A stretch of 64,000 nucleotides of DNA from Candidatus Latescibacterota bacterium (GCA_965248265.1 CBDFJF010000001.1:1344001-1408000), one strand, 5' to 3'. Positions 11,061 through 41,304 are shown, counted from the first letter of the stretch. Translations and numbers: made by a program. Notes: generated by a model from the sequence alone, not told the origin.

Positions 11061-11086
11061 CCGTTTTCAGCTCCAGAGGTAGAAGG

Positions 11087-11953: not shown

Positions 11954-12170
11954 TCGATATCTCCTGGCCATTTTACTGATCACACTCGTCACCTACCGCC
12001 GGCGTAGTGCATGTAATCATAGTTTCTTAGGTTAGTCAAGTTAGCCGCGCGGCATGAGTGCGGTCCGATTTGCAGGTGAAGCACAAGGCACCCAACGAAG
12101 AGTCGAAGGCCGCACTGAAGGCTCCAGCATCTGTCTCATACGCCGACTATCGCCCGAGAATACGGTATTA

Positions 12171-12509
12171 ATGAATCCGACTGAACCCCACATCGACATG
12201 AGCACGATTCGTGCTATTGCTCAGCTGATCACCGAGCGCTTCGACCCGGAGCAGGTGACACTCTTCGGCAGCTATGCACGTGGAGACGCAAGCGACAACA
12301 GTGATGTGGACCTGCTTGTAGTACTTCGGGATACCAACCCGCGACGTGGCAATCCGGTCCGTATGGCGATTGCCGAGCGGTTCGTACTGCCGGTTGATGT
12401 GGTCATCCGCACTCCGGAAGCAGTGGAGCAGTACCGCGACGATCCGTTTTCGCTGATCCATCGGGTGCTGAAGGAGGGTGTGGTGCTTTATGAGCGCCGT
12501 GCGGCCTGA
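12171..12509 (+). CDS. Minimal nucleotidyltransferase (MNT) antitoxin-type protein
   Basis: LFGSYARG..SDVDLLVV, PVDVVI and EGVVLYE motifs. Confidence 0.85.
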   Translation: MNPTEPHIDMSTIRAIAQLITERFDPEQVTLFGSYARGDASDNSDVDLLVVLRDTNPRRGNPVRMAIAERFVLPVDVVIRTPEAVEQYRDDPFSLIHRVLKEGVVLYERRAA

Positions 12510-12645
12510 TCGAGACTGGTTCGATCGAGCAGCGGTTCGGTATCCGATGGAGGGGCGACAGGAGCCCGATGGAGAGGCGGCCGCAGAGGCTATCCTCCTG
12601 GCGGAGCAGGTTGCCACTTTCATACTCGATCGGTCGGCCATCTGA
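12490..12645 (+). pseudogene. Internally deleted HEPN-domain gene remnant (51 aa)
   Basis: Overlaps the MNT 3' end. Manual translation MSAVRPDRDWFDRA-AVRYPMEGRQEPDGEAAAEAILLAEQVATFILDRSAI* resembles a HEPN first helix joined directly to the RYP/last helix. Confidence 0.6.
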
Positions 12646-12683
12646 ATGCTTGTGGAACTTGGCGATCTCAGGAGTTGCAGGGG

Positions 12684-21563: not shown

Positions 21564-21646
21564 TGATTCCTCCAGTGTTCTTGCCTGCCGGCAACATGCC
21601 GCTGGGTTTCGATGTTTCGTTGCGGCCTCATCGATATGCGTGTGCA

Positions 21647-27057: not shown

Positions 27058-28356
27058 ATGATCAGCAAAACGACGACAGGAGCGCTGGCGATTGCGCTGG
27101 CCGCGACCATGGCAGTGGCCGACGAATGGCCGCAGTGGCGGGGCCCGGCAGGCGACGGCGTGTGGCATGAAAGCGGAATCGTCACCGAGCTGCCCCAACC
27201 TGCCATACCCCTCCGGTGGCGAGCGAAAATCTCGAGCGGTTACAGCGGGCCCACGGTGGCAGACGGCCGCGTCTTTGTCATGGACCGCGTCACCAGCCCG
27301 AGCCAGATCGAGCGCGTTCACTGCTTCGCATGGCAGACCGGAGAGCTGCTGTGGTCGCACCAATACGAGCGCGAGTATCGGAATGTCGACTTCATCGCCG
27401 GCCCTCGCGCTTGTGTGGCCATTCACGACGGACTGGCCTACGCCCTCGGCACGATGGGCGATCTTCACTGCCTCGATGCCGAATCGGGTAAGGTCGTCTG
27501 GCGCAAAGACCTGTTGGAAGAATACGGGATCCGCATGCCGATCTGGGGCATTGCTGCCTCGCCGATCGTTTTCGGAGACCTGGTAATCGTGCAGATCGGC
27601 GGCACCTCTGCCTGTCTCGTCGCCTTCGATCGCCGTACCGGCAAGGAAATGTGGAAAGCACTCGATGATCGGGCCTCCTACTCCACCCCACTGATCGTCG
27701 AGCAGAATGGCGAAACAATCCTGGTGTGCTGGACGGGCGACTACGTTGTCGGCCTCGATCCCCGCAGCGGGCAAACACACTGGAAGTACCCGAATCCCCC
27801 GAAGGAAATAGTCATCTCGATCGCGTCACCCGTCATCGATGGCGACAGGCTCTTCGTCACGAATTTCTACGACGGCTCGCTGATGCTGCGACTGCTATCC
27901 GATCGTCTGGCCGTGGAAAAAACCTGGCGCCGCGCAGGCTCCTCGGAACTGCAGACCGACGCTCTCCACTCGACCATCACCACACCTCTCATCATCGGCG
28001 ACCTCATCTACGGAATCGACAGCTACGGAGAGTTCCGGGGACTGGACGCCGCCACCGGCGAGCGCGTGTGGGAGAGTTCGGAGATCGTGCCGAGGGCGCG
28101 GTGGGCAACGGCTCATCTGGTGCGCAACGACGAACGGGTGTGGATCCTCAACGAGCGCGGCAAGCTGTTGATCACCAGCCTCACACCACAAGGCGCTCTA
28201 ATCCACAGCGCTGCGCATCTGATAAAACCGACCCGCGATCAGCTCAATCAGCGGGATGGCGTGGTGTGGTCGCAGCCGGCCTTCGCCTATCGTCACGTCT
28301 TCGCCCGCAACGACGAGGAGCTGGTCTGCGCCGACCTGAGAGCTGGCTCACAGTAA
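27058..28356 (+). CDS. PQQ-like (BamB-type) beta-propeller protein, secreted
   Basis: Signal peptide; WPQWRGP; repeated CLDA.SGKVVW. Confidence 0.85.
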   Translation: MISKTTTGALAIALAATMAVADEWPQWRGPAGDGVWHESGIVTELPQPAIPLRWRAKISSGYSGPTVADGRVFVMDRVTSPSQIERVHCFAWQTGELLWSHQYEREYRNVDFIAGPRACVAIHDGLAYALGTMGDLHCLDAESGKVVWRKDLLEEYGIRMPIWGIAASPIVFGDLVIVQIGGTSACLVAFDRRTGKEMWKALDDRASYSTPLIVEQNGETILVCWTGDYVVGLDPRSGQTHWKYPNPPKEIVISIASPVIDGDRLFVTNFYDGSLMLRLLSDRLAVEKTWRRAGSSELQTDALHSTITTPLIIGDLIYGIDSYGEFRGLDAATGERVWESSEIVPRARWATAHLVRNDERVWILNERGKLLITSLTPQGALIHSAAHLIKPTRDQLNQRDGVVWSQPAFAYRHVFARNDEELVCADLRAGSQ

Positions 28357-28416
28357 CATCGCACAGTGCGCCGGGCGCATCCCAGCGCGACGCAAATCAT
28401 CAGAGGAGACAATCGC

Positions 28417-29316
28417 GTGACGCAGGCCATTCCAACCGCAGTGCTGGGCCGCACCGGACTGAAAGTCACCCGGCTCGGGTTCGGCACCGCCATCAGAGGC
28501 AATCCCGACGACGAGCACTGGAACAAAGTGCTGAACTCGGTGCTGGACGCGGGGATCAACTTCATAGACACCGCCAACGACTATGGCGTTAACAAAGGAA
28601 ACCCGGCCGAAGAGCAGATCGGAAAACAGATCTCCGGACGCCGGTCGGAGTTCTACCTCGCTACCAAGTGTGGATGCCCTCCCGGGGGCGGCGAGCACAT
28701 CTGGACGCGGGAGAACGCCTTCCGGGGATTACACGAGAGCCTGGAGCGGATGCAGACCGACTACGTGGACGTGATGCAGTACCACAATCCCTCAGTTGAG
28801 GAATGCGAGGCTGGTGACTTGGTGGCCGTGCTCGAGGATATGCGCAAGCAGGGCAAGGTGCGCTGGATAGGCGTCTCGACGACGCTGCCACACCTGGCGA
28901 CGTTCCTCGAGTGGGGGGTGTTCGACGTCTTCCAGATCCCCTACTCCGCCCTGGAGCGGGAGCACGAAGAGTGGATCACCAGGTCCGCACAAGCGGGAAC
29001 CGGCATTGTCGTCCGCGGCGGGGTGGCCCAGGGCGAACCTGATGCCGCCGCGGGAGAGGGGCAGGTGAACAGGTGGAAGATGTTCGAGGCGAATCTCGAC
29101 GAGCTGGTCGATGAAGGGGAGAGCCGTACCACGTTCATGCTGCGGTATACCCTGACGCATCCCCACTGCGATACAACCATCGTGGGCACTACCCGCATCG
29201 ATCACCTCGAAGAGAACCTGGCTGGTGTCATGAAAGGACCACTCTCTCCCGACACCTACGCCGAGGCCAAGCGCCGCCTGGACGCCGCCGGTGAGAAACC
29301 CGAGGCGGTTGCGTAA
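28417..29316 (+). CDS. Aldo/keto reductase
   Basis: LGRTGLKVTRLGFG, GINFIDTANDY, ATK, GKVRWIGVS; GAGGAG RBS before GTG. Confidence 0.9.
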   Translation: MTQAIPTAVLGRTGLKVTRLGFGTAIRGNPDDEHWNKVLNSVLDAGINFIDTANDYGVNKGNPAEEQIGKQISGRRSEFYLATKCGCPPGGGEHIWTRENAFRGLHESLERMQTDYVDVMQYHNPSVEECEAGDLVAVLEDMRKQGKVRWIGVSTTLPHLATFLEWGVFDVFQIPYSALEREHEEWITRSAQAGTGIVVRGGVAQGEPDAAAGEGQVNRWKMFEANLDELVDEGESRTTFMLRYTLTHPHCDTTIVGTTRIDHLEENLAGVMKGPLSPDTYAEAKRRLDAAGEKPEAVA

Positions 29317-29337
29317 TCCTTCCCACTGGCGGGAACC

Positions 29338-31269
29338 CTACGGCGCAAATACCTGAAACCGCCCACCTTCACTTCCCCCGTCGACGACGTGGATCCGGCC
29401 TTGCGAGTCGACGACCATGTCGATAGCGGTCGGTGGTGAGACCTGGAATTCTCCCGGCGCGTCGCCGAATCTTCCCCATTTGGTGACAAAGCGTCGTTCC
29501 GTGTCTTGTGACCTGGCATCAAAGACCTGTAGCAGGCCGCGCGCCTCCATGACCATCAGTCTCGTGCTAGACGCGTCGAAGGCGATGACGAGGGGGTCGA
29601 GGGTTTCGCCGCTGTCGGGCCCGACGCCGTCGTCGAAGGTGCTGTCATTACCCCCGTAAATGGTGTCCGTGACCTTCGTCTTGGCGATGATGTGGTTGCG
29701 TTCGCGATCGGGGACGCTGAAGAAGAACTGGTCGTTGCCGCTGCCTGCCCCAGCCTCGGGCGCCCGGACGACGTGCTGAACTGGTATGCCCTGATCGGCG
29801 ATGAGCGTCTTCCGAATGAGATCGAGCGGACCCTCCACGTTCCCCTCGCTGTCACTGCGATACATGAACCCCTCGTAGTCTATCATCACAATTGACCCGT
29901 CCTCGTCTTCGTAGAGGCCGGCCGGAAATGCGCCGTCCGTATCGATCAGGCGGAACCACAGCTCCCGCCGATCGGTGTCGATGGCACCGAGGACGACGCT
30001 TTTGCTTACCGTGTCTGAAACAGCGGTGTAGACACGTCCGCCCGTATCGACTGCAAGCCGCACCGGGGAAAGGCGGTGAGGTATCAGGCTGTTGCCTTCC
30101 AGTCTCGAAAAGTAGGGTCGATACCCGTCACCCCCCGGAAACATGACCTGAACGCCCGCCTGCATCGCTCTGGCAGTGGTGGTCGAGATCGCCGACATGG
30201 CGATGTAGATATCATCCATCCCGTCCAGGGCAGCGCCGATCGCCTGCGCCTCGGAGTTGCTGATAGACTGGAGTTCCCGCGTCTCCACGAGCGGATAGAA
30301 AATGCCGCTTCGCTCTGGACTGGCGCTCGATATACCACCCTCCCATTCCGTGTGCACGACGACGCGGTAGAGGTACTCCGTGTTGCCGTCGAGGACGGTA
30401 TCCGTGTACGAGGTGATGGTCTGGGTTTCAAGTAGCTCCACGGGCACATTCAGCCCGCCTTCGACGCGCCGGTGCACCTCGTAGGCTTGGAACCTGGGCC
30501 CATCGTATTGTGACCACGCCAATTCGGCCGTGGCGGTTTCACTGCTCAATAAAAGGCTTTCGATGCGCACTGCTGGAATCTCATAGGAGATTTCGGCGCG
30601 GGCGCTCTCGAAGCCGGCGCCAAAGACGATGGTGTTGACCCAGTAGAAGTAGTCGGCGCCGGGGCGGGCGGTCGTGTCCGTCCAGGCGCTGGTCTCGACC
30701 TCAGGTATCGAGTCCAGCCGTGCTGTATCTTCGCCGAATGCACGGCGCCAAATCTCGTACCCGTCAAAACCCGGACCGATGTACGGGTCCCAGGTCAGCA
30801 CGATGTGCCCTGTTGCCGGGGAGTCAGCGATGGAGGTCAACTCGACACCGGTGACGGTAAACGACTGCACGGAAAGCGGTTCGCTGGGCACGCCAAAGCC
30901 CGCCGTGTTCACTACTTCGATCCAGTAGATGTAGTCCCGGTCCGGCCTGATTGACGTGTCGGCATACGCTGTCTGTGCTTGTTCGCCTAGGTGTGCGAGG
31001 GTATCAATCTCAACGAGTGTCTTCTCGCGGCGCATTACCAGGTACATGTGGAAATCGGTTTGCCCTTCGTACGGTGCCCATTCGATGAGCGCCACACCAG
31101 TGGAATCGCTGATCTGCGCGCGGACATCCTCGACTGGAGGCGTGAGCGCGGAGTCGAAGGGGTTTTCTCGCGAGGCGTCGTGGCACGATGCGAAGAGGCA
31201 TGCGACGATCATGAACGCGCTCGCGCGGACAGCGAAGTGCTGTCCCGTATGTGTCTGACCTGAGATCAT
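29338..31269 (-). CDS. Lipoprotein with three FN3-like repeats and an NHL-type beta-propeller
   Basis: Lipobox LFASC followed by RENPFD; three W..Y.G..F..Y...R..DT...Y.Y repeats; WGRFG...GEF..P....VDSQGRIHVVD. Confidence 0.7.
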   Translation of the reverse strand: MISGQTHTGQHFAVRASAFMIVACLFASCHDASRENPFDSALTPPVEDVRAQISDSTGVALIEWAPYEGQTDFHMYLVMRREKTLVEIDTLAHLGEQAQTAYADTSIRPDRDYIYWIEVVNTAGFGVPSEPLSVQSFTVTGVELTSIADSPATGHIVLTWDPYIGPGFDGYEIWRRAFGEDTARLDSIPEVETSAWTDTTARPGADYFYWVNTIVFGAGFESARAEISYEIPAVRIESLLLSSETATAELAWSQYDGPRFQAYEVHRRVEGGLNVPVELLETQTITSYTDTVLDGNTEYLYRVVVHTEWEGGISSASPERSGIFYPLVETRELQSISNSEAQAIGAALDGMDDIYIAMSAISTTTARAMQAGVQVMFPGGDGYRPYFSRLEGNSLIPHRLSPVRLAVDTGGRVYTAVSDTVSKSVVLGAIDTDRRELWFRLIDTDGAFPAGLYEDEDGSIVMIDYEGFMYRSDSEGNVEGPLDLIRKTLIADQGIPVQHVVRAPEAGAGSGNDQFFFSVPDRERNHIIAKTKVTDTIYGGNDSTFDDGVGPDSGETLDPLVIAFDASSTRLMVMEARGLLQVFDARSQDTERRFVTKWGRFGDAPGEFQVSPPTAIDMVVDSQGRIHVVDGGSEGGRFQVFAP

Positions 31270-31368
31270 TTGTTGGATACGGTATCGTTATGCGGAAGGA
31301 ATCATAAGTTCTCCGGCAATTGCCCGAGAAGCATACTGCCGTCGTCGTCGCCTGACAACACAACACCG

Positions 31369-31383
31369 GCAAACGACGTGCCA
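31369..31383 (-). promoter_or_regulatory. Sigma54 -24/-12 promoter for the FN3/NHL lipoprotein
   Basis: Minus strand TGGCACG-TCGT-TTGC matches the consensus, 100 bp upstream of the start at 31269. Confidence 0.85.
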
Positions 31384-31548
31384 GAGTCGGATTGATGCCC
31401 GTTCGCTGCCGCAGGCACGGGCGTTCGGCCACACGTCAATCTGCGGTCTGTTGAACCCAAATTCGTAAATTCGGTCGGAATTTATCACTATATTTTCTCC
31501 GTCGGGATTCGCTGGACTACAACGGGTGATTGGCGCGCTCTACAACGC

Positions 31549-33609
31549 ATGGCGAGAAACCCTTACCTGAACCGTTCCATGATCCGATCCGTCGATCAGT
31601 TCTTCGGCAGGAGCCGGGAAGTGGAACGCATAATGTCGCGCCTGGGCGCCGAACCACCGCAGTCGGTTTCGATCGTCGGGGCTCGCCGTGCGGGCAAGTC
31701 GTCCCTGCTTTGGCACATTGCCCAGAATGAGGTCTATGCCCGCTATCTGGACAAGCCTGAGCGCTACGCGTTCATATTTTTTGACTTTCAGGGACAACAA
31801 CATCTGGGTCAATCCGGTTTTTGCCGGGTCTTCGGCGAACATCTGAGTGCTGCCTGTGGAGACCGTTTTACAGTTCCAGCTCTTGACGATTTCGAGGGCA
31901 TGGAAGCAACCGTGCGCGATCTCAGCGCGCGGGGTCTTCAACTGGTATGTCTGTTCGACGAATTCGAAGCAGTAACCCGCAACCCCGGGTTTGGAGAGGA
32001 GTTCTTTGGTCTGCTGAGGGCGCTGGCCAACGCGCATTCGGTTGCCTTTGTAACCACTTCCCACCTCACGTTGCAGTCTCTGTGCCATACCAGTCAGATC
32101 TCCGAATCACCCTTCTTCAATATTTTCGCTGAATTAAAAATCGGACCGTTCAACGAAGCGGAGGTCAAGGAGCTCGTTGCCAAACCCTCAGCCAGTGCGG
32201 GGACGCCACTCTCGACCCACGAAGAAACGCTCGTGGATCTCAGCGGCCATCTGCCCCTATTCCTCCAGATTGCCTGTGCGGCCGCGTTCGAGTGTTTGAA
32301 TGAGAACCAGGACCATGAGCTGATCCACTCTCTCCTTGAGCAGCGCTTCATGGAGGAGGCAGTCTCTCACTTTCGATATATATGGGATCATTTCGATGAA
32401 GCTGAGCGGGAAACCGCTGTAATCCTGGCCGTCAATTCCACGCCCACGGCTGCCCTTTCTACGGTGCGCTCCCTCCTGGGAGACGGTTTCGTGCGCAATG
32501 TGCAGGGCCGGACCCGGCTTTTTTCGGCCTCGTTTTCCGCTTTCGCTAGAGAGCAGATGCCGGAGGTGCCGAAGGCGACCGCGGGCAGTATTCCATCGCC
32601 CCCATCCAGCCTCGAACCGCCCATGAGATCGGCGATCGACCCGGTAGCCGAAGAAGAAGATCCATTTCCGCAAATCGTGGGCCGCAGCATCGCCATCCGT
32701 CGCGTATTCGCCTTGATGCAAAAGGCCGTCGTCGCAGACGATACCGTCCTGCTCACGGGCGAGACCGGCACCGGCAAGGAACTGGTCGCCCGCTGTATTC
32801 ACGAGAGCAGCCGGCGCGGCAGCGGTCCTTTCGTTGCGGTGAACTGCGGCGCAATCGCCGAACACTTGCAGGAGAGCGAGTTGTTCGGTCATAAGAAGGG
32901 TGCATTCACCGATGCGGCCGCCGATCGCGAGGGATTGTTCGAAGCCGCTCATGAGGGCACGCTTTTTCTAGACGAGATCGGCGAGGTGGGCAGTGCCACC
33001 CAGGTCAAACTTCTGCGCGTTTTGCAGGAGGGGGAGATCCGCCGCGTGGGCGAGAATCACGCCCGCCAGGTGGATATCCGCCTCATTTGCGCCACCAACC
33101 GGAACCTTGAAGAAGAAGTAGAGGCGGGCCGATTCCGCCAGGATCTCTACTATCGCCTCTACGTAATCGCGCTCGAGCTTCCGGCCCTGCGCGATCGCAC
33201 GTCAGATATCCGCCTGTTGGTGGACAGCTTTCTGGCGGAGTATCCGGCGGGCACAACCGAGGATGCAGTGACCCATCTAAATGGTTACTCTTGGCCTGGA
33301 AACATTCGCGAGCTGGAAAATCAGCTTGCCAGCGCCCGCGCGATGGCAGGGGGCGATGCGATCCGTCCCCAACATCTGTGGCCCCGATTGCAGCTGGCCG
33401 CTGCCGAAGATGTCAACGTTGGTGGCTTCCGCACCGAGCTGACCAATTCCCTCTCCTTCAAAGAGGCTCGGGAGCAATTCGAAAGAGACTTGATCCAGTC
33501 ACGGCTGGAGAGACATGATTGGGAGATCGGCGCGGCGGCCGAGGCGCTGGATATCTCGCGGAGTCGACTATACGAGCTCGTGAAGCGCCACGGATTGAAG
33601 CGAGAGTGA
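31549..33609 (+). CDS. STAND-like ATPase fused to a sigma54 enhancer-binding AAA+ domain and Fis HTH
   Basis: N-terminal NPY..FFGR, GARRAGKS, LFDEFE; C-terminal GETGTGKE, ESELFGHKKGAFTDA, LFLDEIGE, FRQDLYYRL, WPGNIRELEN, HTH. Confidence 0.9.
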   Translation: MARNPYLNRSMIRSVDQFFGRSREVERIMSRLGAEPPQSVSIVGARRAGKSSLLWHIAQNEVYARYLDKPERYAFIFFDFQGQQHLGQSGFCRVFGEHLSAACGDRFTVPALDDFEGMEATVRDLSARGLQLVCLFDEFEAVTRNPGFGEEFFGLLRALANAHSVAFVTTSHLTLQSLCHTSQISESPFFNIFAELKIGPFNEAEVKELVAKPSASAGTPLSTHEETLVDLSGHLPLFLQIACAAAFECLNENQDHELIHSLLEQRFMEEAVSHFRYIWDHFDEAERETAVILAVNSTPTAALSTVRSLLGDGFVRNVQGRTRLFSASFSAFAREQMPEVPKATAGSIPSPPSSLEPPMRSAIDPVAEEEDPFPQIVGRSIAIRRVFALMQKAVVADDTVLLTGETGTGKELVARCIHESSRRGSGPFVAVNCGAIAEHLQESELFGHKKGAFTDAAADREGLFEAAHEGTLFLDEIGEVGSATQVKLLRVLQEGEIRRVGENHARQVDIRLICATNRNLEEEVEAGRFRQDLYYRLYVIALELPALRDRTSDIRLLVDSFLAEYPAGTTEDAVTHLNGYSWPGNIRELENQLASARAMAGGDAIRPQHLWPRLQLAAAEDVNVGGFRTELTNSLSFKEAREQFERDLIQSRLERHDWEIGAAAEALDISRSRLYELVKRHGLKRE

Positions 33610-33776
33610 TATCCGCTCTGCGTCACGCGTCCGGAAAACAGGATTTCCGACCTGAATCCGTCTTGAATCCCGGACAGCTGAACTGACCCTCGCCGATTTT
33701 CCCGTCCATCCATTTTTCTCTAAGTTACAATGAAAATTCGACGTTACGTATCATGGGCGTCTTTCGGGACTTGCGG

Positions 33777-33791
33777 TGGCACGGCCATTGC
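33777..33791 (+). promoter_or_regulatory. Sigma54 -24/-12 promoter for the ATPase-PEGA operon
   Basis: TGGCACG-GCCA-TTGC matches the consensus; an AT-rich tract lies upstream. Confidence 0.88.
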
Positions 33792-33865
33792 GATAGAGAA
33801 CCCGGAGGCAGTCCGTTGATGCCAGATTGGACTCCAAACTTGAAAAAACTTCACTGAAGTGGAAT

Positions 33866-36208
33866 ATGGCACCCTCTCAACAAACCGGTGAGTTCAGTCC
33901 CATTTCGCCGAACCCGTTTATTACGGGCAATCCAGTACGTGATCCCAGCCTCTTCTTCGGGCGGGAGGACGATTTCGCCCACGTGCGCCAACGCCTCATC
34001 GCCGAGTCGGAAGGCATCGTGATGCTGTTCGTCGGCGAGCGGCGCAGCGGCAAGACCTCCATCATGTTCCAGATCCTGGATGGTCGCCTGGGCGAGGAGT
34101 TCCTGCCGATCTTCATCGACATGCAACAGATCGCCGGTATTACGGGGGACAACGACCTGCTGGGACGCATCGCCGAGTTCACCATCGAGCAGATCGATGA
34201 CCAGCGGCTGGTAGTTGAGTACTACGACTTTGCTCAAGGGAATCCCGTACTCACGTTCGACCGGTTGCTGGACGATATCCGCCAGATCTTCCCAGACAAG
34301 CGCCTGGTTTTTCTGGTAGACGAGGCGGAGATCCTGCAAGCCAAGGAAATGCGTGAGGAGATCACCAGCGCCGCCGTGATGTACCTCTCCAATATCCTCG
34401 AGAGTCGGAATGTGTCGTTCTGCTTCACCGGTTCCAGCGGTCTGGCCGACTCAGGCAGTACGGGCTGGCGTCGCTTGATCAGCAAGGGGGAAGCACGGGA
34501 GATCACCTTCCTGAGCAAGACCGATACCCTGCGTCTGATACAGCATCCCGTTGAGGGGCGCGTACACTACGGAGAGGGGGTGGTCGACTCGATTTACGAC
34601 CTCACTTTCGGCCATCCGTTCTACACCCAGGTGATTTGCACCAACGTCGTGGACTATCTCAATGAAGCGCAGAAAAACGATTTGAGTGTGGAAGGTCTGC
34701 AGGACGTCGTGCGCACGATCATCGACAACCCACCCCCGCAGATGGTGTACGCCTGGGACGAATTGAGTGACACGGACAGGCTTTCTCTTTCGCTGTTGAG
34801 CGAGGAGAGCGACGAGGCCGTTCTGGTAAAGCCGCAGGAACTCTTTGAGAAAATTAGTGAAAACAATTATCCACTGCAGCTGAAGTCGGATGCGTTGCAC
34901 AAGTCGCTGGAGGATCTTTACGCACACAAGGTGCTGGAACGGGACGACGAAGGAGGATATCGGTTCAGGGTCGATCTCTTTCGCCAGTGGATCCGGCGGG
35001 CCCGCTCCATCTGGAGCCTGGTAGAAGAGCAAGCCCCGCACAAGGGTCGGCAGGCGGTCTGGGCCGGCGCTGGTGTCGTCGCTTTCGCACTCGCAGCTAC
35101 GCTGGGATACTGGCTTTCCGGATCAACGGATAGTGAAACTTCAGCTGGAGTTACCCCGCCTGCGCTGGAGAAGGGCCGCATGTGGGTCGAATCGGACCTG
35201 CGCGAGGTGCAGGTTCTCGTAAACGGCGTGGAACGAGCCTCGAGAGCGCCTGTAATGATTTCCGATCTGCAACCGGGGAATTACAAAGTCGAGGTGAAGA
35301 AACCGAAGTTTCACACCTGGAGTCGTGAGGTAGCCATCCATGCGGGGCAAACCGACAGTCTTCAGGTCGATCTGGTGCGCCAGACCGGATCCCTCAGCGT
35401 GCGCTCCCAACCGGCAGGGGTGTTGGTACAGATCGAAGGCGAGCTCGACACCAGCGCAGTCACTCCCATCGAAGAACTGGCTCTGCCAACAGGGGGTTAC
35501 CAGGTTTTGATGAGACAGCAAGGATACGTCGAACAACGCCGCACAGTGGTTATCGACGATGGCGCCCCCGTGGAGGTGCAGTTCCAGCTGCGCGCCCGGG
35601 TGGGCAACATCTATGTCGAATCACAACCACGAGGTGCCCTGATCCTGCTCGATGGCAAGTCTACCGGCTTGAAGTCGCCTGCGCTTCTGCAAGGCCAACC
35701 GGTAGGTCGCCACAACGTCGGACTGCGGCTTGCCGACTATCAAACCACCGACAAACAAATCGACGTCGCTCTGGGGCAGACGGACACGGTGCGTTGGAGT
35801 TTGACGTTAAACCCCGCCCAAATCCAGATAACCAGTGTCCCCCCGGGCGCGGATATCCTCATCGATGGAAAAACGCATGGCCAGACGCCGGCCGGAATTC
35901 AACTCGAGCCGGGCCGATATCGGTTGCAGCTCGTACTGGAAGGTTACGAGCCCCACGAATTAGAGCAGGAGCTTCAGCCGGGCCAGTCCTACGAACCGCG
36001 GATCACTCTTGTGCCCCAGTACGGTTGGTTGCGAATCGTGAAACCCCTCTTCGGCACGGTGGTCATCAATGGCTCCGACGAACACACGGTGCCACCGGGT
36101 GATATACAGCTGCAAGTAGGCGCCTATAGCATCGCGAGCAAAGGGAATACCCAATCCACGAAGGTTACCGTCACCAAGGGTGATACAGTAAAGGTCTCAT
36201 TGCCATGA
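33866..36208 (+). CDS. STAND-like ATPase + TM helix + 4-5 PEGA repeats
   Basis: NPFITGNPV..FFGRE, GERRSGKTS, LVDEAE, GHPFYTQ; TM AVWAGAGVVAFALAATLGYWL; PEGA repeats (V.SQP.GA.I.LDG). Start could be TTG at 33827. Confidence 0.85.
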   Translation: MAPSQQTGEFSPISPNPFITGNPVRDPSLFFGREDDFAHVRQRLIAESEGIVMLFVGERRSGKTSIMFQILDGRLGEEFLPIFIDMQQIAGITGDNDLLGRIAEFTIEQIDDQRLVVEYYDFAQGNPVLTFDRLLDDIRQIFPDKRLVFLVDEAEILQAKEMREEITSAAVMYLSNILESRNVSFCFTGSSGLADSGSTGWRRLISKGEAREITFLSKTDTLRLIQHPVEGRVHYGEGVVDSIYDLTFGHPFYTQVICTNVVDYLNEAQKNDLSVEGLQDVVRTIIDNPPPQMVYAWDELSDTDRLSLSLLSEESDEAVLVKPQELFEKISENNYPLQLKSDALHKSLEDLYAHKVLERDDEGGYRFRVDLFRQWIRRARSIWSLVEEQAPHKGRQAVWAGAGVVAFALAATLGYWLSGSTDSETSAGVTPPALEKGRMWVESDLREVQVLVNGVERASRAPVMISDLQPGNYKVEVKKPKFHTWSREVAIHAGQTDSLQVDLVRQTGSLSVRSQPAGVLVQIEGELDTSAVTPIEELALPTGGYQVLMRQQGYVEQRRTVVIDDGAPVEVQFQLRARVGNIYVESQPRGALILLDGKSTGLKSPALLQGQPVGRHNVGLRLADYQTTDKQIDVALGQTDTVRWSLTLNPAQIQITSVPPGADILIDGKTHGQTPAGIQLEPGRYRLQLVLEGYEPHELEQELQPGQSYEPRITLVPQYGWLRIVKPLFGTVVINGSDEHTVPPGDIQLQVGAYSIASKGNTQSTKVTVTKGDTVKVSLP

Positions 36209-37002
36209 AAAATTCTCGAAGGGTGGGTACAGTTGTCGCAGCCGTGGTAATGGTCGCCACTCCGCTTTTGAGCCAGGATTCGCCGTTGCAAAAAGCGATT
36301 GCTCAATTTTACGAGGGGGAATGGGAAGGATCGATTGGCGCGATGAACGTGTTGCTTGCGGATGACTCGATGGCGCTCGACGAACAATCGATGGCACGAA
36401 AATTCGTCGCCCTTGGTTACATACTCCTGGGACGGGACGCGGAAGCCGTGTCAGTCTACAAACAGATCGTTCGCGATGATCCGTCTTTTGACATGGACGC
36501 ATTGTCCATAGAGGGAGGGGAGACCCCGGAGGCAGCAGTCCGTTTCTTTGGCCAGGCGATATTGGAGGTGCGTCAGGAAGACATGCGGACTCGGGAAGCT
36601 CAGCTGGCGCGGACCTCGCGCCGAAGCGCGCTGCTGCGTTCCGCCCTGCTACCTGGATGGGGCCAACGCTATCAGGGGTACCGGGGCCGCAGTTTTGTGA
36701 TGATGGGGGGCATGGCGGCGGCGGCCATTTACGCCGTCTCCACGGAGCGCGCCTACCGGACGGCCAAAGATGACTACGAAATGGCGCGTCCTGGTGCCGA
36801 TTTCGAAAACCTGTTCGACGAGTACACCCGCAAGGCAGACCAGTCCGATGTGGCCATCGGCATTCTTGGGGCGGTCTGGCTGTACAATGTGCTGGATACG
36901 GTTTTTCAGGGGCCGAATATCGAACGTCCCAGCGGCGGCTTATTCCTGTGGAACGGGCCCGGTGAACAGGGCCTGCGCATGAGTTACAGAGTGAGATTCT
37001 AA
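36205..37002 (+). CDS. Secreted TPR-like + DUF5683-type envelope protein
   Basis: Signal peptide; helical TPR-like N-terminus; SALLPGWGQRY motif; C-terminal Phe; ATGA overlap with the upstream gene. Confidence 0.65.
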   Translation: MKNSRRVGTVVAAVVMVATPLLSQDSPLQKAIAQFYEGEWEGSIGAMNVLLADDSMALDEQSMARKFVALGYILLGRDAEAVSVYKQIVRDDPSFDMDALSIEGGETPEAAVRFFGQAILEVRQEDMRTREAQLARTSRRSALLRSALLPGWGQRYQGYRGRSFVMMGGMAAAAIYAVSTERAYRTAKDDYEMARPGADFENLFDEYTRKADQSDVAIGILGAVWLYNVLDTVFQGPNIERPSGGLFLWNGPGEQGLRMSYRVRF

Positions 37003-37020
37003 GGAGAAAGCGGGTCGAAC

Positions 37021-38046
37021 GTGGAAAACCCATACGTACACACTCGTCCCATCGAGGGCAACAATGAATTCTACAACCGCACGTCCGAGATCATGCGGAT
37101 CTCCTCTCGGGTGGCGGCGGACCGGCCACAGTCGGTCTCCATCGTTGGTGAACCGGGCATCGGTAAGACCTCACTACTGAACTGGCTGTGCGATCCGACC
37201 TCCCAAGCAGAGTATCTCGACGAGCCCGACTCGTACGTGATGCTGCTACTCAGCCTCGAGAAAAATTCTCCCGAGAATCCCGAAGCGTTCTTTGGCCTCG
37301 TGCAAACCGCTCTCGACGCGGCCGATCGCGGATCGATGAAGCCCAACTACGACGGATTCAACGATCTGGTGAAACGGTTGATGCAGGAAAAGAAAAAGCT
37401 GGTTCTGTTCTGCGATGACTTCGGAGCCGTAACCCAGCACCAGGATTTTCCACTGGACTTCTTCTCCTTCATGCGCTCCTTGGCCAACAGCCACGATGTT
37501 GGATATGTGACCACTTCTTCGGGACCCTTGCAGAAGTTGTGTCACACCCAGGATATCGAGGAGTCGCCCTTCTTCAACATCTTCACCACCGTTAATCTCG
37601 AGGCTTTCAAGGCCGAAGAAGCCCGGCGCCTCGTGGAGGAACCAGCCCGGGCGGCGGGTCGACCGTTCGAGCAGGAGACCGAATGGGTGCTGGATCTGGG
37701 GGGCAACCTCCCTTACCTGTTGCAGGCCACGGCCAGCATCGCCTTCGATGTTCGCATCAACGGATCTATTGAGCAAGAAGACCTGCGCGACGCCGCCGCC
37801 AGGGAGGTGAAGGGATACCTCGAAGCCCTGTGGGAAGATGCGTTTACCGAGGCGGAGCAGGAGGTCCTGCGCCGCCTCTCTGGTGGCAAACCGGTGGAAC
37901 GCCGCCTGGAGTTTGCCGCCGAGGCATTGGAACGCAGTGGTCATCTGCGTAGAGCCGGCTCCGACTACGAGATCGCCGCGGGTCTGCTTGCCCGCTTTGT
38001 CAAGGATCACAGCAGCGGCGGTTTTCTGAAACGGTTGTTCGGCTGA
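37021..38046 (+). CDS. Stand-alone STAND-like ATPase with amphipathic C-terminal tail
   Basis: NPY, GEPGIGKTS, LFCDDF, SPFFNIF; ends in GGFLKRLFG. Confidence 0.8.
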   Translation: MENPYVHTRPIEGNNEFYNRTSEIMRISSRVAADRPQSVSIVGEPGIGKTSLLNWLCDPTSQAEYLDEPDSYVMLLLSLEKNSPENPEAFFGLVQTALDAADRGSMKPNYDGFNDLVKRLMQEKKKLVLFCDDFGAVTQHQDFPLDFFSFMRSLANSHDVGYVTTSSGPLQKLCHTQDIEESPFFNIFTTVNLEAFKAEEARRLVEEPARAAGRPFEQETEWVLDLGGNLPYLLQATASIAFDVRINGSIEQEDLRDAAAREVKGYLEALWEDAFTEAEQEVLRRLSGGKPVERRLEFAAEALERSGHLRRAGSDYEIAAGLLARFVKDHSSGGFLKRLFG

Positions 38047-38055
38047 GGGATCCAT

Positions 38056-39846
38056 TTGAAAATCCCGCGCAATCCCTATCTAAACCGCTCGATGATCCGT
38101 GCGCCCAGCATGTTCTACGGGCGTCGCAAGGAAGTGATGCGTCTGGCGTCGCGCATCGGGGCGGATCCACCCCAGTCGGTGGCGATCGTCGGGGACCGCC
38201 GCATTGGCAAGTCTTCCCTGTTGTCCTACATCGCTCATCCAGACATCGTTGCGGATTATCTGGACGATCCCGACAAGGCACTGTTTCTGTTCATGGATTT
38301 TCAGGAGGAGCTGCGCCTGAGCATTGCGGGATTCATCGAATCAGTGTTTCGCCATCTGCAAGGCCAACTGCCGGTATTGATCCCGCAGGATCCGACCCCA
38401 GACCATCTGCGGGAGCTGGTGGCACAACTCCATCGGGATGGCTACCGGCTCATCCTGCTTCTGGATGAGTTCGATCGCTTAACGCGCAGCTCGAACTTCG
38501 ATGCCGACTTCTTCGCCCATCTGCGCTCACTCTCTGGGCATTTCAACATCGCCTTCGTCACTTCCACCAGCCGCGATCTGCAGAAGCTCTGTCGCACTCA
38601 AGAGATCTCCGATTCACCTTTTTTCAACATCTTTTCCACCGTTTATCTAGGACCGCTGGAATCCGACGAGGCGGTCGCCCTCATTCGCGAGCCGTCTGGA
38701 TCGACCCCGTTTCCGCTTGAACAATACATGGATATGATTCTCGAACTCGGTGGTCATTTCCCGTTCTTCCTCCAAATGGCTTGCTCCGCCGCCTTCGAGG
38801 TGTTGGTCGAAGAGGGTGAATGCATTCGCGAGCGCGTCGAGGCCCGATTTTTGGAAGAAGCCAGTCCTCATTTTCAATTTTACTGGGAGCAGATGGGAGC
38901 AGTGGACCGAGCACTTTGCAATCAGATGGCCATTGAAGGCGAAGTGGATATGGCGAGCTCGGAATGCCAGGAGCTGCAGCGTCGCGGCTTCGCCCTGGAG
39001 AAGGGGCGGCTCTTCTCCACCGCGTTTGCCAACTTCGTCCGGGAATCCTACGAGCGTGAAATCGGCGAGGTGCCCTTGGAAGTCCAGGCTGAGCGTGCAC
39101 GGAGCATGGAGGAGGAGCTTGACCGTGCGCGAGAGATGCAGATGGGACTTCTGCCCCAGAAAAGTCCTCAAACCGATGGGTTCGACCTGGCGGGACGGTG
39201 TGAACCGGCAACGCAGGTTGGGGGCGATTTCTACACCTACGTCTGGCTCGATGAGGCTCACACCAGGCTGGCCATCGTCGCCGTGGACGTCATGGGGCAC
39301 GGAATGCAGGGTGCCGTGACCGCGCTGCGATTCAGCGAAACACTTCGCTACGAAGTAAGGGAATGCGGCGATGCGGTGAAATTGCTGAGTGCTCTGAACC
39401 GGGCGCTATGCGGAACGCTCAAAAGTGGCGAGTTCGTCGGTTGCTGTGTCGCTGTCTTGGACGTGACCGAGCGCCGTCTCGACGTGGCGGTGGCTGGGTA
39501 CCATCCCCCCCTGCACTACGAGGCTGAAGCGGGAATGGTGAGGGAACTCGAGTTGGGCAATCTGCCCTTGGGAATCAAGGAGGATACCGACTACGTGGGC
39601 ACCTCGTTCAAGTTGAACAAGGATGACCGGTTGCTGTTCTACTCGGATGGGGTGATCGAGGCGCAGGACGACAGACAAGTGTTATACGGCGAGGAGCGCA
39701 TACAGGAACTGCTGTTGCAGAGTACGCGGGAAGGGTTGGACTCGGAGGCGCTGTTGGACCGACTGTACTGGGACGTGGGACGATTCTCGGCGAGCACGGG
39801 ACAGCAGGATGATACAACCTCGATCGCCGTGCGCGTGACGCGCTAG
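38056..39846 (+). CDS. STAND-like ATPase fused to a PP2C/SpoIIE (RsbU-type) phosphatase
   Basis: GDRRIGKSS, LLDEFD, SPFFNIF; GGDFY, DVMGHG, YSDGVIEA, QDDTT. Confidence 0.9.
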   Translation: MKIPRNPYLNRSMIRAPSMFYGRRKEVMRLASRIGADPPQSVAIVGDRRIGKSSLLSYIAHPDIVADYLDDPDKALFLFMDFQEELRLSIAGFIESVFRHLQGQLPVLIPQDPTPDHLRELVAQLHRDGYRLILLLDEFDRLTRSSNFDADFFAHLRSLSGHFNIAFVTSTSRDLQKLCRTQEISDSPFFNIFSTVYLGPLESDEAVALIREPSGSTPFPLEQYMDMILELGGHFPFFLQMACSAAFEVLVEEGECIRERVEARFLEEASPHFQFYWEQMGAVDRALCNQMAIEGEVDMASSECQELQRRGFALEKGRLFSTAFANFVRESYEREIGEVPLEVQAERARSMEEELDRAREMQMGLLPQKSPQTDGFDLAGRCEPATQVGGDFYTYVWLDEAHTRLAIVAVDVMGHGMQGAVTALRFSETLRYEVRECGDAVKLLSALNRALCGTLKSGEFVGCCVAVLDVTERRLDVAVAGYHPPLHYEAEAGMVRELELGNLPLGIKEDTDYVGTSFKLNKDDRLLFYSDGVIEAQDDRQVLYGEERIQELLLQSTREGLDSEALLDRLYWDVGRFSASTGQQDDTTSIAVRVTR

Positions 39847-39927
39847 GGGGCCGAATCATATGAGCGCTCGATGCCGACGCCATTGGACACTGAGCGCGGG
39901 CGGGTTTCTCTTGCCGTGCGGGGGTAG

Positions 39928-41304
39928 TTAGGGAGTCTCCTGCAGCCGCAGAAGCTTGCCGCCCCCGGCCACCAGGTTCAGCTCCACCCGCGACCCGTCC
40001 GAAGCCGGGCGCCACTGCCGTTCCTCGGTGTCGAACTCTTCCAGCGCTCCCGGGCCGACTACCGTCGTCGTGATCGCTTGTGAATGGTCCAGGTTCACGA
40101 CCAGGACGTGTGTTGTCTCGCCGGTTGATCCGAAGTAGCCCCAGAGGACGCCCTTCTCCTGCTGTGGATCGAAAGACGGATCCACGGAAAACTCCGCGTC
40201 GGCCGGAAGTGCATCCACGGTCCAGGCGCCCACGGGCGCTTGCCCGGAGTGATACACGGCGAGGGAAGTCAGCGGTTGCAGCTGTTGTGCTACGGCGACG
40301 AACTCGGGATGAATTTGACGCAGGGCCTCGCCAAGCGGGGTCAGTGGCGCCGCCACGTCGGCCGCGGCGCGTTCCGCGTTCCACTCGACGTCCTCGAACG
40401 CTGAAATGCCCCCGTAGAAGTCACTGTAGGCCCAGTAGGTGAACTGCATGATGCCCTGGCCGCCGTAGGCGAGCGTCGTGTAGGCCAGGTACCTGCTCTC
40501 ATCGCTGTTGGGCGCACGGTGGCGCTCACCCACTGAAACAGCCTCCACCACGTTGATGAAGGGAATGCCTCCGTTCAGGGCTGCCTCACGCACCAGCGCC
40601 AGGTTCATGAAGTAGGTGTTGCTCGCATGCAGGTTTGCACCTGCCTCGTCGTCCGTGTAGAGGCTGTAGTGATCGTAGCTGATCAGGTCCGGCTTCACCA
40701 CCTGGACGAACTGACGCAGGTGTTCTCTGTAGGCTGTTTCCGTATCGCCTGCGGTACCCAGCGCCGCGGCACTTGCGTACGTCGGGAACAGGTTTATGTG
40801 CGATACATGGGCGGGATCACGCTCGCGGATGTAGTCGACGATCCTGGCGAGCTCTGGAAACCTGACCGCGCTGGGTTCGTCGACGATTCTGTAGGAATAA
40901 AGAGCGGGATGGTCCTTCACGCTGTCGATGACCGAGTCGATCCGCGCCCTGGCTATCGGGTCGTCCAGGTTAGCGGGCTCTCTCAGGTCCTGGGCGATCA
41001 GGTCTAGCCGCAGCCCGTGTGCATGGGCGACGTCGAGGTCTTCGACCGTACTTCCCCAGGCCAGGGTGAACCCCCCGTCGACCAGTTTTCGGGCCATCCC
41101 GGGTGTCAGCGGGCCAAATCGAGTATCGATTCCGCCTCCGGGGCCGTGGTAATAGCCGACAATCGGTGTTCCGATCTCCCACACGCTGACCTCCGGTTGT
41201 TGCTGGCTCGCCTTGGTCAAGAAACCGGCACACCCCGGGGCAAAAAGGCAAAGAAGGCAGATCCCCCCCATACGAACGGCGCCTGCGATGCCGCGCGCGT
41301 TCAT
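39928..41304 (-). CDS. TIM-barrel glycosidase-like lipoprotein (family copy 3)
   Basis: ATGA-coupled to the upstream paralog; lipobox-like APGC; WEIGTPIVGYYHGPG, DEPS. Confidence 0.7.
   Translation of the reverse strand: MNARGIAGAVRMGGICLLCLFAPGCAGFLTKASQQQPEVSVWEIGTPIVGYYHGPGGGIDTRFGPLTPGMARKLVDGGFTLAWGSTVEDLDVAHAHGLRLDLIAQDLREPANLDDPIARARIDSVIDSVKDHPALYSYRIVDEPSAVRFPELARIVDYIRERDPAHVSHINLFPTYASAAALGTAGDTETAYREHLRQFVQVVKPDLISYDHYSLYTDDEAGANLHASNTYFMNLALVREAALNGGIPFINVVEAVSVGERHRAPNSDESRYLAYTTLAYGGQGIMQFTYWAYSDFYGGISAFEDVEWNAERAAADVAAPLTPLGEALRQIHPEFVAVAQQLQPLTSLAVYHSGQAPVGAWTVDALPADAEFSVDPSFDPQQEKGVLWGYFGSTGETTHVLVVNLDHSQAITTTVVGPGALEEFDTEERQWRPASDGSRVELNLVAGGGKLLRLQETP

Follow-up and report, generated by a model that had tools for sequence, protein, structure and literature searches.

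Paired P-loop NTPase modules as a candidate transmembrane signalling system in a Latescibacterota genome

We analysed a 64,000-nucleotide stretch of DNA from a Candidatus Latescibacterota bacterium (GCA_965248265.1, CBDFJF010000001.1:1344001-1408000), referred to here as the window, and within it a cluster of six genes, four of which encode proteins that begin with a related ATPase module and end in different ways. Three of these modules belong to the Pfam family nSTAND2, while the fourth, which has no Pfam family and which we provisionally name P2ATPase, sits on a putative membrane receptor. The conserved linkage of the two families, the domains fused to each and a predicted complex between them suggest that they operate together as a transmembrane signalling pair. 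The nearest named relative among those compared is a Candidatus Latescibacterota metagenome-assembled genome.

Six genes and two related ATPase families

The cluster is composed of one minus-strand gene and five plus-strand genes (Table 1), and the plus-strand genes either overlap or are spaced by 9-18 nt, except for a 217-nt gap 3' of the activator gene. The start of P0003 overlaps the stop codon of the receptor gene. The receptor open reading frame (ORF) is open from a TTG at 33827; the ATG at 33866 was taken as the probable start codon because it aligns with the start of a relative and because the database copy of the protein (P0158) is 780 amino acids (aa) long. A scan of the locus for sigma-70 promoters and terminators gave nothing exceeding shuffled sequences.

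The Pfam matches define a distinct architecture for each protein. P0001 contains nSTAND2 (about residues 1-340; E 2.6e-38, 132.4 bits), Sigma54_activat (PF00158, residues 376-542; 5.6e-69, 231.6 bits), AAA_lid_14 and a Fis-type helix-turn-helix (HTH) matching HTH_8 (residues 641-676; E 9.8e-8, 32 bits). P0004 matches nSTAND2 (1.1e-35, 123.7 bits) and no other family, and P0005 combines nSTAND2 (4.5e-42, 144.7 bits) with a SpoIIE/PP2C phosphatase domain (PF07228; 5.3e-41, 141.1 bits) that includes DVMGHG, YSDG and DDTT, which we take to be the metal-binding Asp motifs of PP2C enzymes. All three nSTAND2 scores lie above the curated cut-off of 24 bits for PF20702. P0002 matches PEGA over four stretches (E 5.4e-50); no nSTAND2 match was found in it at E <= 0.01, and its N terminus gave only sub-threshold matches to AAA_14, AAA_22 and ATPase_2. 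P0003 matches DUF5683 (2.1e-7), with TPR_6 (0.008) under its cut-off, and P0006 matches fn3 (E 1e-12) and, at the borderline (20.1 vs 20 bits), NHL, and carries the sequence LFASC, presumably a lipobox.

A single hydrophobic segment in P0002 (residues 410-428) lies between the ATPase and the PEGA part, and therefore the ATPase is predicted to be cytoplasmic and the PEGA repeats to lie outside the membrane. This supports a receptor topology for P0002. No His-kinase or Ser/Thr-kinase domain was found in the ten flanking ORFs scanned, and neither these nor the six cluster proteins contain HisKA, HATPase_c or REC by Pfam. A first-pass annotation, made from the sequence alone, had already placed the six genes at these positions, assigned four of them the differing C termini given in Table 1, proposed the PEGA protein as the receptor and remarked on the lack of a His or Ser/Thr kinase in the locus, all of which agrees with the domain analysis. 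Its "TPR/DUF5683 envelope gene" keeps the DUF5683 assignment, with the TPR weak and sub-threshold, and its divergent "FN3/NHL lipoprotein" stands in position and fn3 content, with NHL borderline, and more plausibly belongs to the set as a co-regulated gene, as argued below.

The same annotation had held that four genes start with a related ATPase and that three of them share the motif SPFFNIF, and both statements are borne out. The four N-terminal modules can be aligned (identity to the P0001 module 24, 32 and 41%), and all four share NP[YF], F.[GN]R, a Walker A motif of the form G....GK[ST] and a Walker B D[DE]; three also contain SPFFNIF, which P0002 lacks. The relationship of P0002 is established by profile-profile comparison (hhalign), in which P2ATPase and nSTAND2 align with a probability of 99.8 and an E value of 9.9e-30 over 327 columns at 16% identity. 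By profile comparison, P2ATPase is a distant sister family of nSTAND2, homologous over the whole module and separate from it, with invariant motifs of its own that include DNPxPQ..Y.W. Profile classification thus places three modules in PF20702 and leaves the fourth, without a PF20702 match, as P2ATPase. The Walker G, K and D residues are invariant in 62 nSTAND2 ORFs found beside P2ATPase genes and in 22 P2ATPase proteins. Among 8000 scored candidates, 465 were P2ATPase relatives at E <= 0.001. A search with P0004 limited to longer homologues gave 2 matches, and an exhaustive profile search was used in its place, which returned 12,866 nSTAND2 representatives at E <= 0.001, with 1,362 of them reaching E <= 1e-30.

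P0004 was modelled with AlphaFold2 from 32 sequences, and the confident model obtained (predicted local distance difference test, pLDDT, 93.8; predicted template modelling score 0.90) was compared with solved structures using Foldseek. The nearest folds are PABY2304 (2qen, E 3.7e-13, template modelling score 0.64) and SSO1545 (2fna), followed by archaeal Orc1/Cdc6 and ORC4 and then by Roq1, RPP1 and Avs3 at about 5e-7. A sequence search of the PDB with P0004 gave 2fna only (E 2.9e-7), and on that basis P0004 has no solved close relative. As modelled, the nSTAND2 module is composed of an AAA+ core, a lid and a winged helix, of the Orc/Cdc6-STAND kind. ESM Atlas neighbours of the P2ATPase part were limited to generic AAA_16, AAA_22, nSTAND1, nSTAND2 and NACHT proteins, which is consistent with kinship to the STAND group and nothing beyond it.

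Very large frames of 1,100-1,900 aa were also observed to contain a P2ATPase-like module of greater divergence (21-26% identity, E 1e-11 to 1e-21), both in the same phylum (genomes G082, G077, G088, G075 and G092) and in Gemmatimonadota (G182, G168, G185 and others). The genomes of the first group are without a PF20702 match and some of the second have one (G168, G182, G185). This module may represent a further branch with another partner.

Table 1. Genes and candidate regulatory elements of the cluster, in window coordinates.
Feature	Position	Strand	Basis or remark
P0006, FN3 repeats and NHL-type C-terminal region, probable lipoprotein	29338-31269	minus, divergent	Pfam
Sigma54-type -24/-12 element TGGCACGTCGTTTGCC	31368-31383	minus	pattern match, 99 nt upstream of FN3/NHL start codon
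P0001, activator: nSTAND2, sigma54-interaction AAA+, AAA lid and Fis-type HTH	31549-33609	plus	Pfam
Candidate upstream activator site, half-palindromic, GTCCGGAAAACAGGAT	33629-33644	plus	conserved position in relatives
Second related upstream element GAATCCCGGACAGC	33665-33678		
Sigma54-type -24/-12 element TGGCACGGCCATTGCG	33777-33792	plus	74 nt before receptor ATG
P0002/P0158, putative receptor: P2ATPase, one transmembrane helix, PEGA/CarboxypepD_reg repeats	33866-36208	plus	Pfam, profile comparison
P0003, envelope protein: N-terminal signal-like segment, weak TPR, DUF5683	36205-37002	plus	Pfam
P0004, stand-alone nSTAND2 NTPase	37021-38046	plus	Pfam
P0005, nSTAND2 and SpoIIE-type PP2C phosphatase	38056-39846	plus	Pfam

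Conservation of the gene set and of the ATPase pair

The genome (7.3 Mb, 2 contigs) contains four nSTAND2 genes, three of them in the cluster and one, encoding an nSTAND2-TPR protein, on the other contig. Within the phylum, nSTAND2 was found in 10 of 168 genomes, all belonging to one family, and the same gene set is present in five other genomes of that family (loci L001, L018, L019, L020 and L023; 38-77% protein identity), where the clusters of L020 and L023 end at contig edges. Orthologues of the activator (52-71% identity) were identified in L001, L018, L020, L021 and L023. The six genes recur on metagenome contigs in permuted order, which reads PP2C, PEGA, DUF5683, stand-alone nSTAND2, FN3/NHL, activator in L038 and PEGA, DUF5683, stand-alone nSTAND2, PP2C, FN3/NHL, activator in L044, with yet other orders in L037 and L046. 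The DUF5683 gene is kept directly 3' of the PEGA gene in L001, L018-L020 and L037-L046; FN3/NHL orthologues lie in or beside the cluster at varying positions (L001, L018, L019, L037, L038, L044 and L046); and orthologues of the PP2C gene were found in L001 (as a split frame), L018, L038 and L044 and are absent from L019. Given this recurrence in five genomes and in metagenome contigs, the six-gene arrangement is not due to chance, and because the set is kept through rearrangement we treat it as a functional unit that includes the FN3/NHL protein.

Some of the related loci show features of their own. The PP2C gene of L001 is split over two overlapping frames (11027-12672), and the PEGA receptor gene of L019 is matched in four pieces in different frames, with the PP2C gene missing (L019 9209-11575 and about 6833-7344); these broken genes may reflect decay or long-read indel errors in the assemblies. 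Between the nSTAND2 and FN3 genes, both loci have a small frame (L001 12672-12965, minus; L019 about 6952-7344, plus) with a sigma54-like element just upstream; read by eye, the frame may encode a coiled coil and a C-terminal hydrophobic tail, but a script chose a different frame. The fourth nSTAND2 gene of the genome (L017, 1-10546 on the other contig) encodes an nSTAND2-TPR protein of 894 aa with no P2ATPase gene nearby; an FN3/NHL paralogue lies beside it, and the locus also encodes a 675-aa protein without a Pfam match and an M6 peptidase with FlgD_ig.

From the gene neighbourhoods, the element conserved across phyla is the pair of P2ATPase and nSTAND2. In a sample of Gemmatimonadota, nSTAND2 occurred in 12 of 301 genomes, and at 11 of the 12 loci a gene for a TPR-transmembrane-P2ATPase protein lies just upstream on the same strand, the partner being a Ser/Thr-kinase-nSTAND2 gene; the twelfth locus ends at a contig edge. 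Counted by genome, both families were present in 10, P2ATPase only in 1, nSTAND2 only in 2 (both at contig ends) and neither in 288. All 7 genomes of the 168 in the window's own phylum that have a strong P2ATPase match also have nSTAND2, with 3 having nSTAND2 only, and none of 14 control genomes contained nSTAND2. A metagenome scan seeded on P2ATPase only gave 80 loci, 55 of which contain an nSTAND2 gene; where at least 3 kb of downstream sequence was available, nSTAND2 followed within 3.5 kb on the same strand in 36 of 45, and at least one paired locus was found in 26 of the 30 seed clusters (70% identity). No test statistic was applied to the phyletic profiles because related genomes are not independent samples. 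On this evidence P2ATPase and nSTAND2 very probably form a functional pair. At L002, a ThuA-like gene of about 240 aa (PF06283; 8243-8974) lies between the TPR-P2ATPase and kinase-nSTAND2 genes, and gaps of about 0.7-1.3 kb are seen at the corresponding position in L026-L036.

The domains fused to the two families differ in kind. In relatives, the domain joined to P2ATPase is PEGA, a Reg_prop/Y_Y_Y propeller with a CarboxypepD_reg array, TPR or a Cache-like domain. In 12 of 14 P2ATPase proteins (13 from the database and that of L002) the ATPase, at whichever end it sits, is set off from the variable part by one or more hydrophobic segments. The exceptions are P0212, without a hydrophobic segment, and P0215, with an N-terminal one only. 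The two 650-aa proteins P0217 and P0259 have the layout of a first transmembrane segment, roughly 200 aa, a second transmembrane segment and the ATPase. The nSTAND2 relatives carry mainly output domains. Among 74 close relatives (drawn from 103 listed matches of at least 430 aa, with 29 other long and 46 shorter matches left out), the fused domains were Pkinase in 34, Guanylate_cyc in 10, SpoIIE in 5, TIR_2 in 5, Sigma54_activat in 3 and caspase in 3. The 62 nSTAND2 ORFs beside P2ATPase genes showed a similar range (Pkinase 33, Sigma54_activat 6, Guanylate_cyc 3, SpoIIE 2 and caspase 1), and about 17 of them were without a listed output domain. No sensor domain was found by Pfam in the nSTAND2 output proteins of the locus; the sensors sit on the P2ATPase partner. 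PEGA has been reported to associate with peptidoglycan in the text available of PMC7159879, and in the portions of Kaur et al. 2020 available to us PEGA is mentioned only with iSTAND and GAP1 systems.

The TIR and caspase fusions raise the alternative of a counter-invader system, in which STAND NTPases would sense an invader, oligomerise and fire effectors, and the outputs at this locus would merely happen to be regulatory. The family itself was named in connection with a predicted counter-invader two-gene operon (PMC8195603, as far as its available text goes), and the patchy distribution, the flanking neighbours that differ from genome to genome and a slightly lower G+C content (0.58-0.59 over 28001-40000 vs 0.60-0.64 in most flanking 2-kb windows) would all fit such an element. 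Nevertheless, the PADLOC-DB 2.0 models place the cluster in no known defence system, with matches limited to generic RtcR/PspF AAA on the sigma54 core, a weak mad8 (4.9e-6) and a weak PDC-S27 (3.7e-4), and no nuclease, TIR, caspase or toxin was found by Pfam among the cluster proteins and flanking ORFs. The sensors, being extracytoplasmic or across a transmembrane helix, suit envelope or environmental cues and not cytoplasmic phage proteins; the main outputs among relatives are kinases, cyclases and sigma54 activators; the activator would feed back on its own partners via the conserved candidate promoters described below; and Walker A and B are intact in all four NTPases, in contrast to the one eroded module of the operon as published in that text. 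We consider the counter-invader explanation unlikely.

Predicted interface and candidate sigma54 circuit

A complex was modelled for one pair, the receptor ATPase (P0158 residues 12-402) and P0004, each with an alignment. The model reached an interface score (ipSAE) of 0.71 (0.71, 0.72 and 0.69 in separate runs) vs 0.07 for the best control; for calibration, 58 of 80 solved complexes and 2 of 110 mismatched pairs attain that mark, figures that are only roughly valid here because our own alignments were used. The runs share at least 86% of contacts, with partner pLDDT of at least 83. On the P0004 side the predicted interface is formed by residues 183 and 185-192, together with residues 152-157, which include the invariant R152; SPFFNIF corresponds to residues 182-188 and is itself invariant. 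On the P0158 side it is formed by residues 287-292 and by P-loop residues 59-60 and 64, with N288, P289, P291 and Q292 (the NPxPQ motif) invariant or nearly so. The signature motif of each family is thus part of the predicted contact, which would explain the conservation of both. The model supports binding of P0004 by the receptor ATPase, and that the two families bind through their NTPase modules is, in our judgement, fairly likely.

The predicted contact bears on a second alternative, that the four NTPases are independent paralogues, each regulating its own fused domain in the manner of MalT or AfsR, and that their clustering reflects co-regulation only. Classic STAND proteins are self-contained, and nSTAND2 proteins without a neighbouring P2ATPase do exist (L017, L021, L022, L024 and L025). 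Set against this, the nSTAND2 outputs have no sensor of their own, adjacency of the two families is kept across phyla while the fused domains change, and the modelled complex holds up against its controls and places the signature motifs at the contact surface. Independent paralogues therefore appear an improbable explanation, slightly more so than a counter-invader system.

The activator P0001 is, from its domain composition, an enhancer-binding protein with a STAND-like input module. Its Walker A motif reads GETGTGK and its L1 loop GAFTDA, where the canonical loop of sigma54 activators is GAFTGA; among 10 relatives plus P0001 the loop is GAFTDA in 9 and GSFTDA in 1, and in 1 it was not found by regular expression. 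The genome encodes rpoN (DNA-binding domain, E 3.2e-62). The 64-kb window was searched for the sigma54 pattern TGGCAC-N5-TTGCW with at most one mismatch. Three matches were obtained, all in the cluster: two lie on either side of the activator gene and are suitably oriented (Table 1), and the third, inside the activator gene (32072-32087, minus), was set aside as a probable chance match. The count is not above chance (3 vs 1.68 expected, with 25 of 100 shuffles reaching 3), so the case for these promoters rests on position and conservation. Of 17 sequences scanned, 11 have a -24/-12 element in the corresponding place, 5' of the PEGA gene or of the gene that opens its operon; L020 and L042 look identical, so that 10 of the 11 are distinct. 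About 100-150 nt upstream of this element lies a conserved palindrome that reads TGTCCGGAAAAC(T/A)GGACA and is in some cases duplicated; palindromes of the TGTCC-N7/8-GGACA type occupy the same place in L001, L018, L019, L020/L042, L023, L041 and L044, with a more degenerate version in L040. To judge by the sequences, palindrome and -24/-12 element are spaced in the layout expected of an enhancer-binding-protein site.

The candidate circuit extends to the FN3/NHL gene, which is probably a co-regulated member of the set, with a putative sigma54 promoter of its own in the window and a place inside the operon in L038 and L044. Paralogues of the FN3-type lipoprotein lie behind -24/-12 elements of their own in L044 and L017, the L017 element (767-782, minus) being 5' of a further FN3-like lipoprotein ORF. 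Genes for secreted FG-GAP/ASPIC-like proteins were also observed near clusters (L001 18047-19289, L037 from 3935 onward, L038 from 2084 onward, L019 from about 2085 downward on the minus strand, and L002 260-3370), and in L001, L019, L037 and L038 they lie behind sigma54-like -24/-12 elements; the proteins may be further regulon members. No FG-GAP/ASPIC homologue was found in the window. Two adjoining paralogous secreted proteins at 19623-23653 (minus), each with CarboxypepD_reg and FlgD_ig and one with a weak Por_Secre_tail match, resemble the L037 and L038 FG-GAP proteins only in their C-terminal ~100 aa, which may be a lineage-specific sorting domain.

The envelope proteins of the set suggest a third alternative, an envelope-assembly or surface-protein machinery in which the ATPases would power or chaperone the placement of the PEGA, DUF5683 and FN3/NHL proteins. 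Three such proteins belong to the set, secreted FN3/NHL and FG-GAP/ASPIC-like proteins with sigma54-like promoters recur near clusters, and the association of PEGA with peptidoglycan stated in the available text of PMC7159879 would be in keeping with it. The ATPases are, however, fused to standard output domains of signalling proteins (sigma54 activator, PP2C, Ser/Thr kinase and cyclase), and their fold, which includes a winged helix, belongs with the Orc/Cdc6/STAND switches and is not nearest to unfoldase or translocase AAA+ proteins. Of the alternatives considered, we find this one the hardest to credit.

A receptor-receiver model and its relation to known systems

The explanation that we favour for the cluster as a whole, at a probability of about 0.6, is that it encodes a transmembrane signalling system with a pairing of P-loop NTPase modules at its core. 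The receptor would present its PEGA repeats outside the membrane and use the cytoplasmic P2ATPase as a transmitter, and three cytoplasmic proteins would carry the cognate nSTAND2 module as a receiver, fused to a sigma54 core and HTH, to PP2C or to nothing. An envelope cue is proposed to alter the nucleotide or oligomeric state of the receptor ATPase, which would then bind nSTAND2 modules via an AAA+-type inter-subunit surface that holds SPFFNIF and the invariant Arg on the nSTAND2 side and NPxPQ and the P-loop on the P2ATPase side. Mixed oligomers would assemble or release the fused outputs; sigma54 AAA+ cores, SpoIIE/RsbU-type PP2C phosphatases, Ser/Thr kinases, class III cyclases, caspases and TIR domains all act as dimers or oligomers. 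The activator would feed back on the sigma54 promoter of the receptor operon and, as output, drive that of the FN3/NHL gene, PP2C would act on a phosphoprotein, and the stand-alone nSTAND2 protein could serve as an adaptor or a competitor. The homology, the architecture, the conserved linkage, and the conservation of promoter and palindrome are established in silico, and the complex is a supported model that passes its controls. The nature of the cue, the sign of the effect (the activator switched on, or sequestered at the membrane), the part played by ATP and the target of PP2C are assigned here by inference.

A number of observations weigh against this model. The patchy distribution (10 of 168 and 12 of 301 genomes), the TIR (5 of 74) and caspase (3 of 74) fusions of close relatives and the published counter-invader setting of nSTAND2 have been mentioned, as have the single modelled pair with its rough calibration, the kinship of the genomes and the chance-level count of sigma54 sites. 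In addition, 7 of the 45 metagenome loci are without nSTAND2 even though about 7.6-10 kb of sequence follows their P2ATPase gene, and the FN3 promoter of the window has only a weak or partial palindrome match. Several nSTAND2 genes have no nearby P2ATPase and the genome contains only one P2ATPase, so nSTAND2 proteins can presumably also stand alone or act in trans. Finally, a membrane-tethered partner of a DNA-binding activator is equally compatible with sequestration and with activation.

The first-pass annotation had proposed that the shared ATPase acts as a homotypic coupling module, relaying the envelope signal in place of phosphotransfer. The ATPase modules do emerge as the constant, coupled core, but the receptor carries the separate sister family P2ATPase, and the coupling would therefore not be strictly homotypic. 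Coupling via NTPase-NTPase contact "in place of phosphotransfer" is an inference, and most relatives have a Ser/Thr kinase as the output itself. That annotation had also regarded the combination as undescribed. The nSTAND2 family and a two-gene STAND operon have in fact been published, while for the signalling pair of a receptor ATPase and an nSTAND2 output no description was found in full-text searches of the literature (supplements and subscription journals lay outside their scope).

More tentatively, with odds somewhat short of even, P2ATPase and nSTAND2 may constitute a general, unrecognised class of transmembrane signalling systems, a P-loop analogue of two-component systems. Receptors with PEGA, Reg_prop propeller, Cache-like or TPR sensors would carry the P2ATPase transmitter, which would hetero-oligomerise with the nSTAND2 receiver, with nucleotide-dependent assembly taking the place of phosphotransfer. 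Receivers would be fused to Ser/Thr kinases, sigma54 activators, cyclases, PP2C or TIR/caspase death effectors, and in the window the system would be branched, a single receptor serving three receivers. If this is so, a receptor role and identifiable partners could be assigned to many membrane proteins that now stand as uncharacterised "AAA ATPases" in Latescibacterota, Gemmatimonadota and, by source names, Acidobacteriota and Desulfobacterales; sigma54 activators, Ser/Thr kinases, cyclases and PP2C would come under the control of a STAND-type NTPase in trans; and the STAND/NLR logic of immunity would be linked to ordinary envelope sensing. The system is directly testable, as it offers two predicted interface motifs and a defined promoter with an upstream site that are amenable to sigma54 reporters in E. 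coli.

The published system closest to the present one is the operon of Kaur, Iyer, Burroughs and Aravind (eLife 2021, PMC8195603), who named nSTAND2 and from whose work the Pfam model is derived. As presented in the available text of that paper, it is a mobile two-gene operon whose two products are built on a STAND core, with joint assembly into a toroidal hetero-multimer predicted. One of the modules has eroded NTP motifs and is fused mostly to GT4 or HEPN, and the operon was read as a counter-invader system. The present system resembles it in its adjoining STAND NTPase genes, in the variable domains on a constant core and in the predicted hetero-multimer, and three of its four NTPases match the Pfam model. 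It differs in that all modules keep Walker A and B and that neither GT4 nor HEPN was seen in the locus, among the 25 listed of 39 families fused in the 74 relatives, or among the 24 families of the 62 neighbours. One partner, moreover, is here a sister family on a transmembrane receptor, and the outputs in the locus and in relatives are a sigma54 activator, PP2C, Ser/Thr kinases and cyclases, with conserved candidate promoters. To judge by domain content and by the text available, the present system shares the two-STAND-gene idea and lacks two defining features of that operon, and what it adds is the receptor topology, the signalling outputs and a putative sigma54 circuit.

In MalT, AfsR, Apaf-1, the plant NLRs and Avs proteins, a winged-helix NTPase switch activates fused effectors by nucleotide-dependent oligomerisation. 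The nSTAND2 module has the same combination of NTPase switch and winged helix, and Roq1, RPP1 and Avs3 are among its structural matches, although the nearest folds of P0004 are archaeal Walker ATPases and Orc1/Cdc6 and not NLRs. Unlike in classic STAND proteins, sensor and effector are on separate polypeptides, each with an NTPase, and the sensor is predicted to be extracytoplasmic.

This division recalls two-component systems and Ser/Thr kinase receptors, in which a variable sensor across the membrane is joined to a constant transmitter and a constant receiver to variable outputs; as in two-component systems, one receptor would serve several outputs, NtrC-type sigma54 activators among them. 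In contrast to two-component systems, the six proteins contain no HisKA, HATPase_c or REC, and NTPase contact would replace phosphotransfer. The activator itself is similar to NtrC, PspF and NorR in its sigma54 AAA+ core, lid and Fis-type HTH, in the presence of rpoN in the genome and in a -24/-12 element with an upstream palindrome, and it departs from them in its GAFTDA loop and in an N-terminal nSTAND2 module that takes the place of the REC, GAF, PAS, V4R or CARF input domain.

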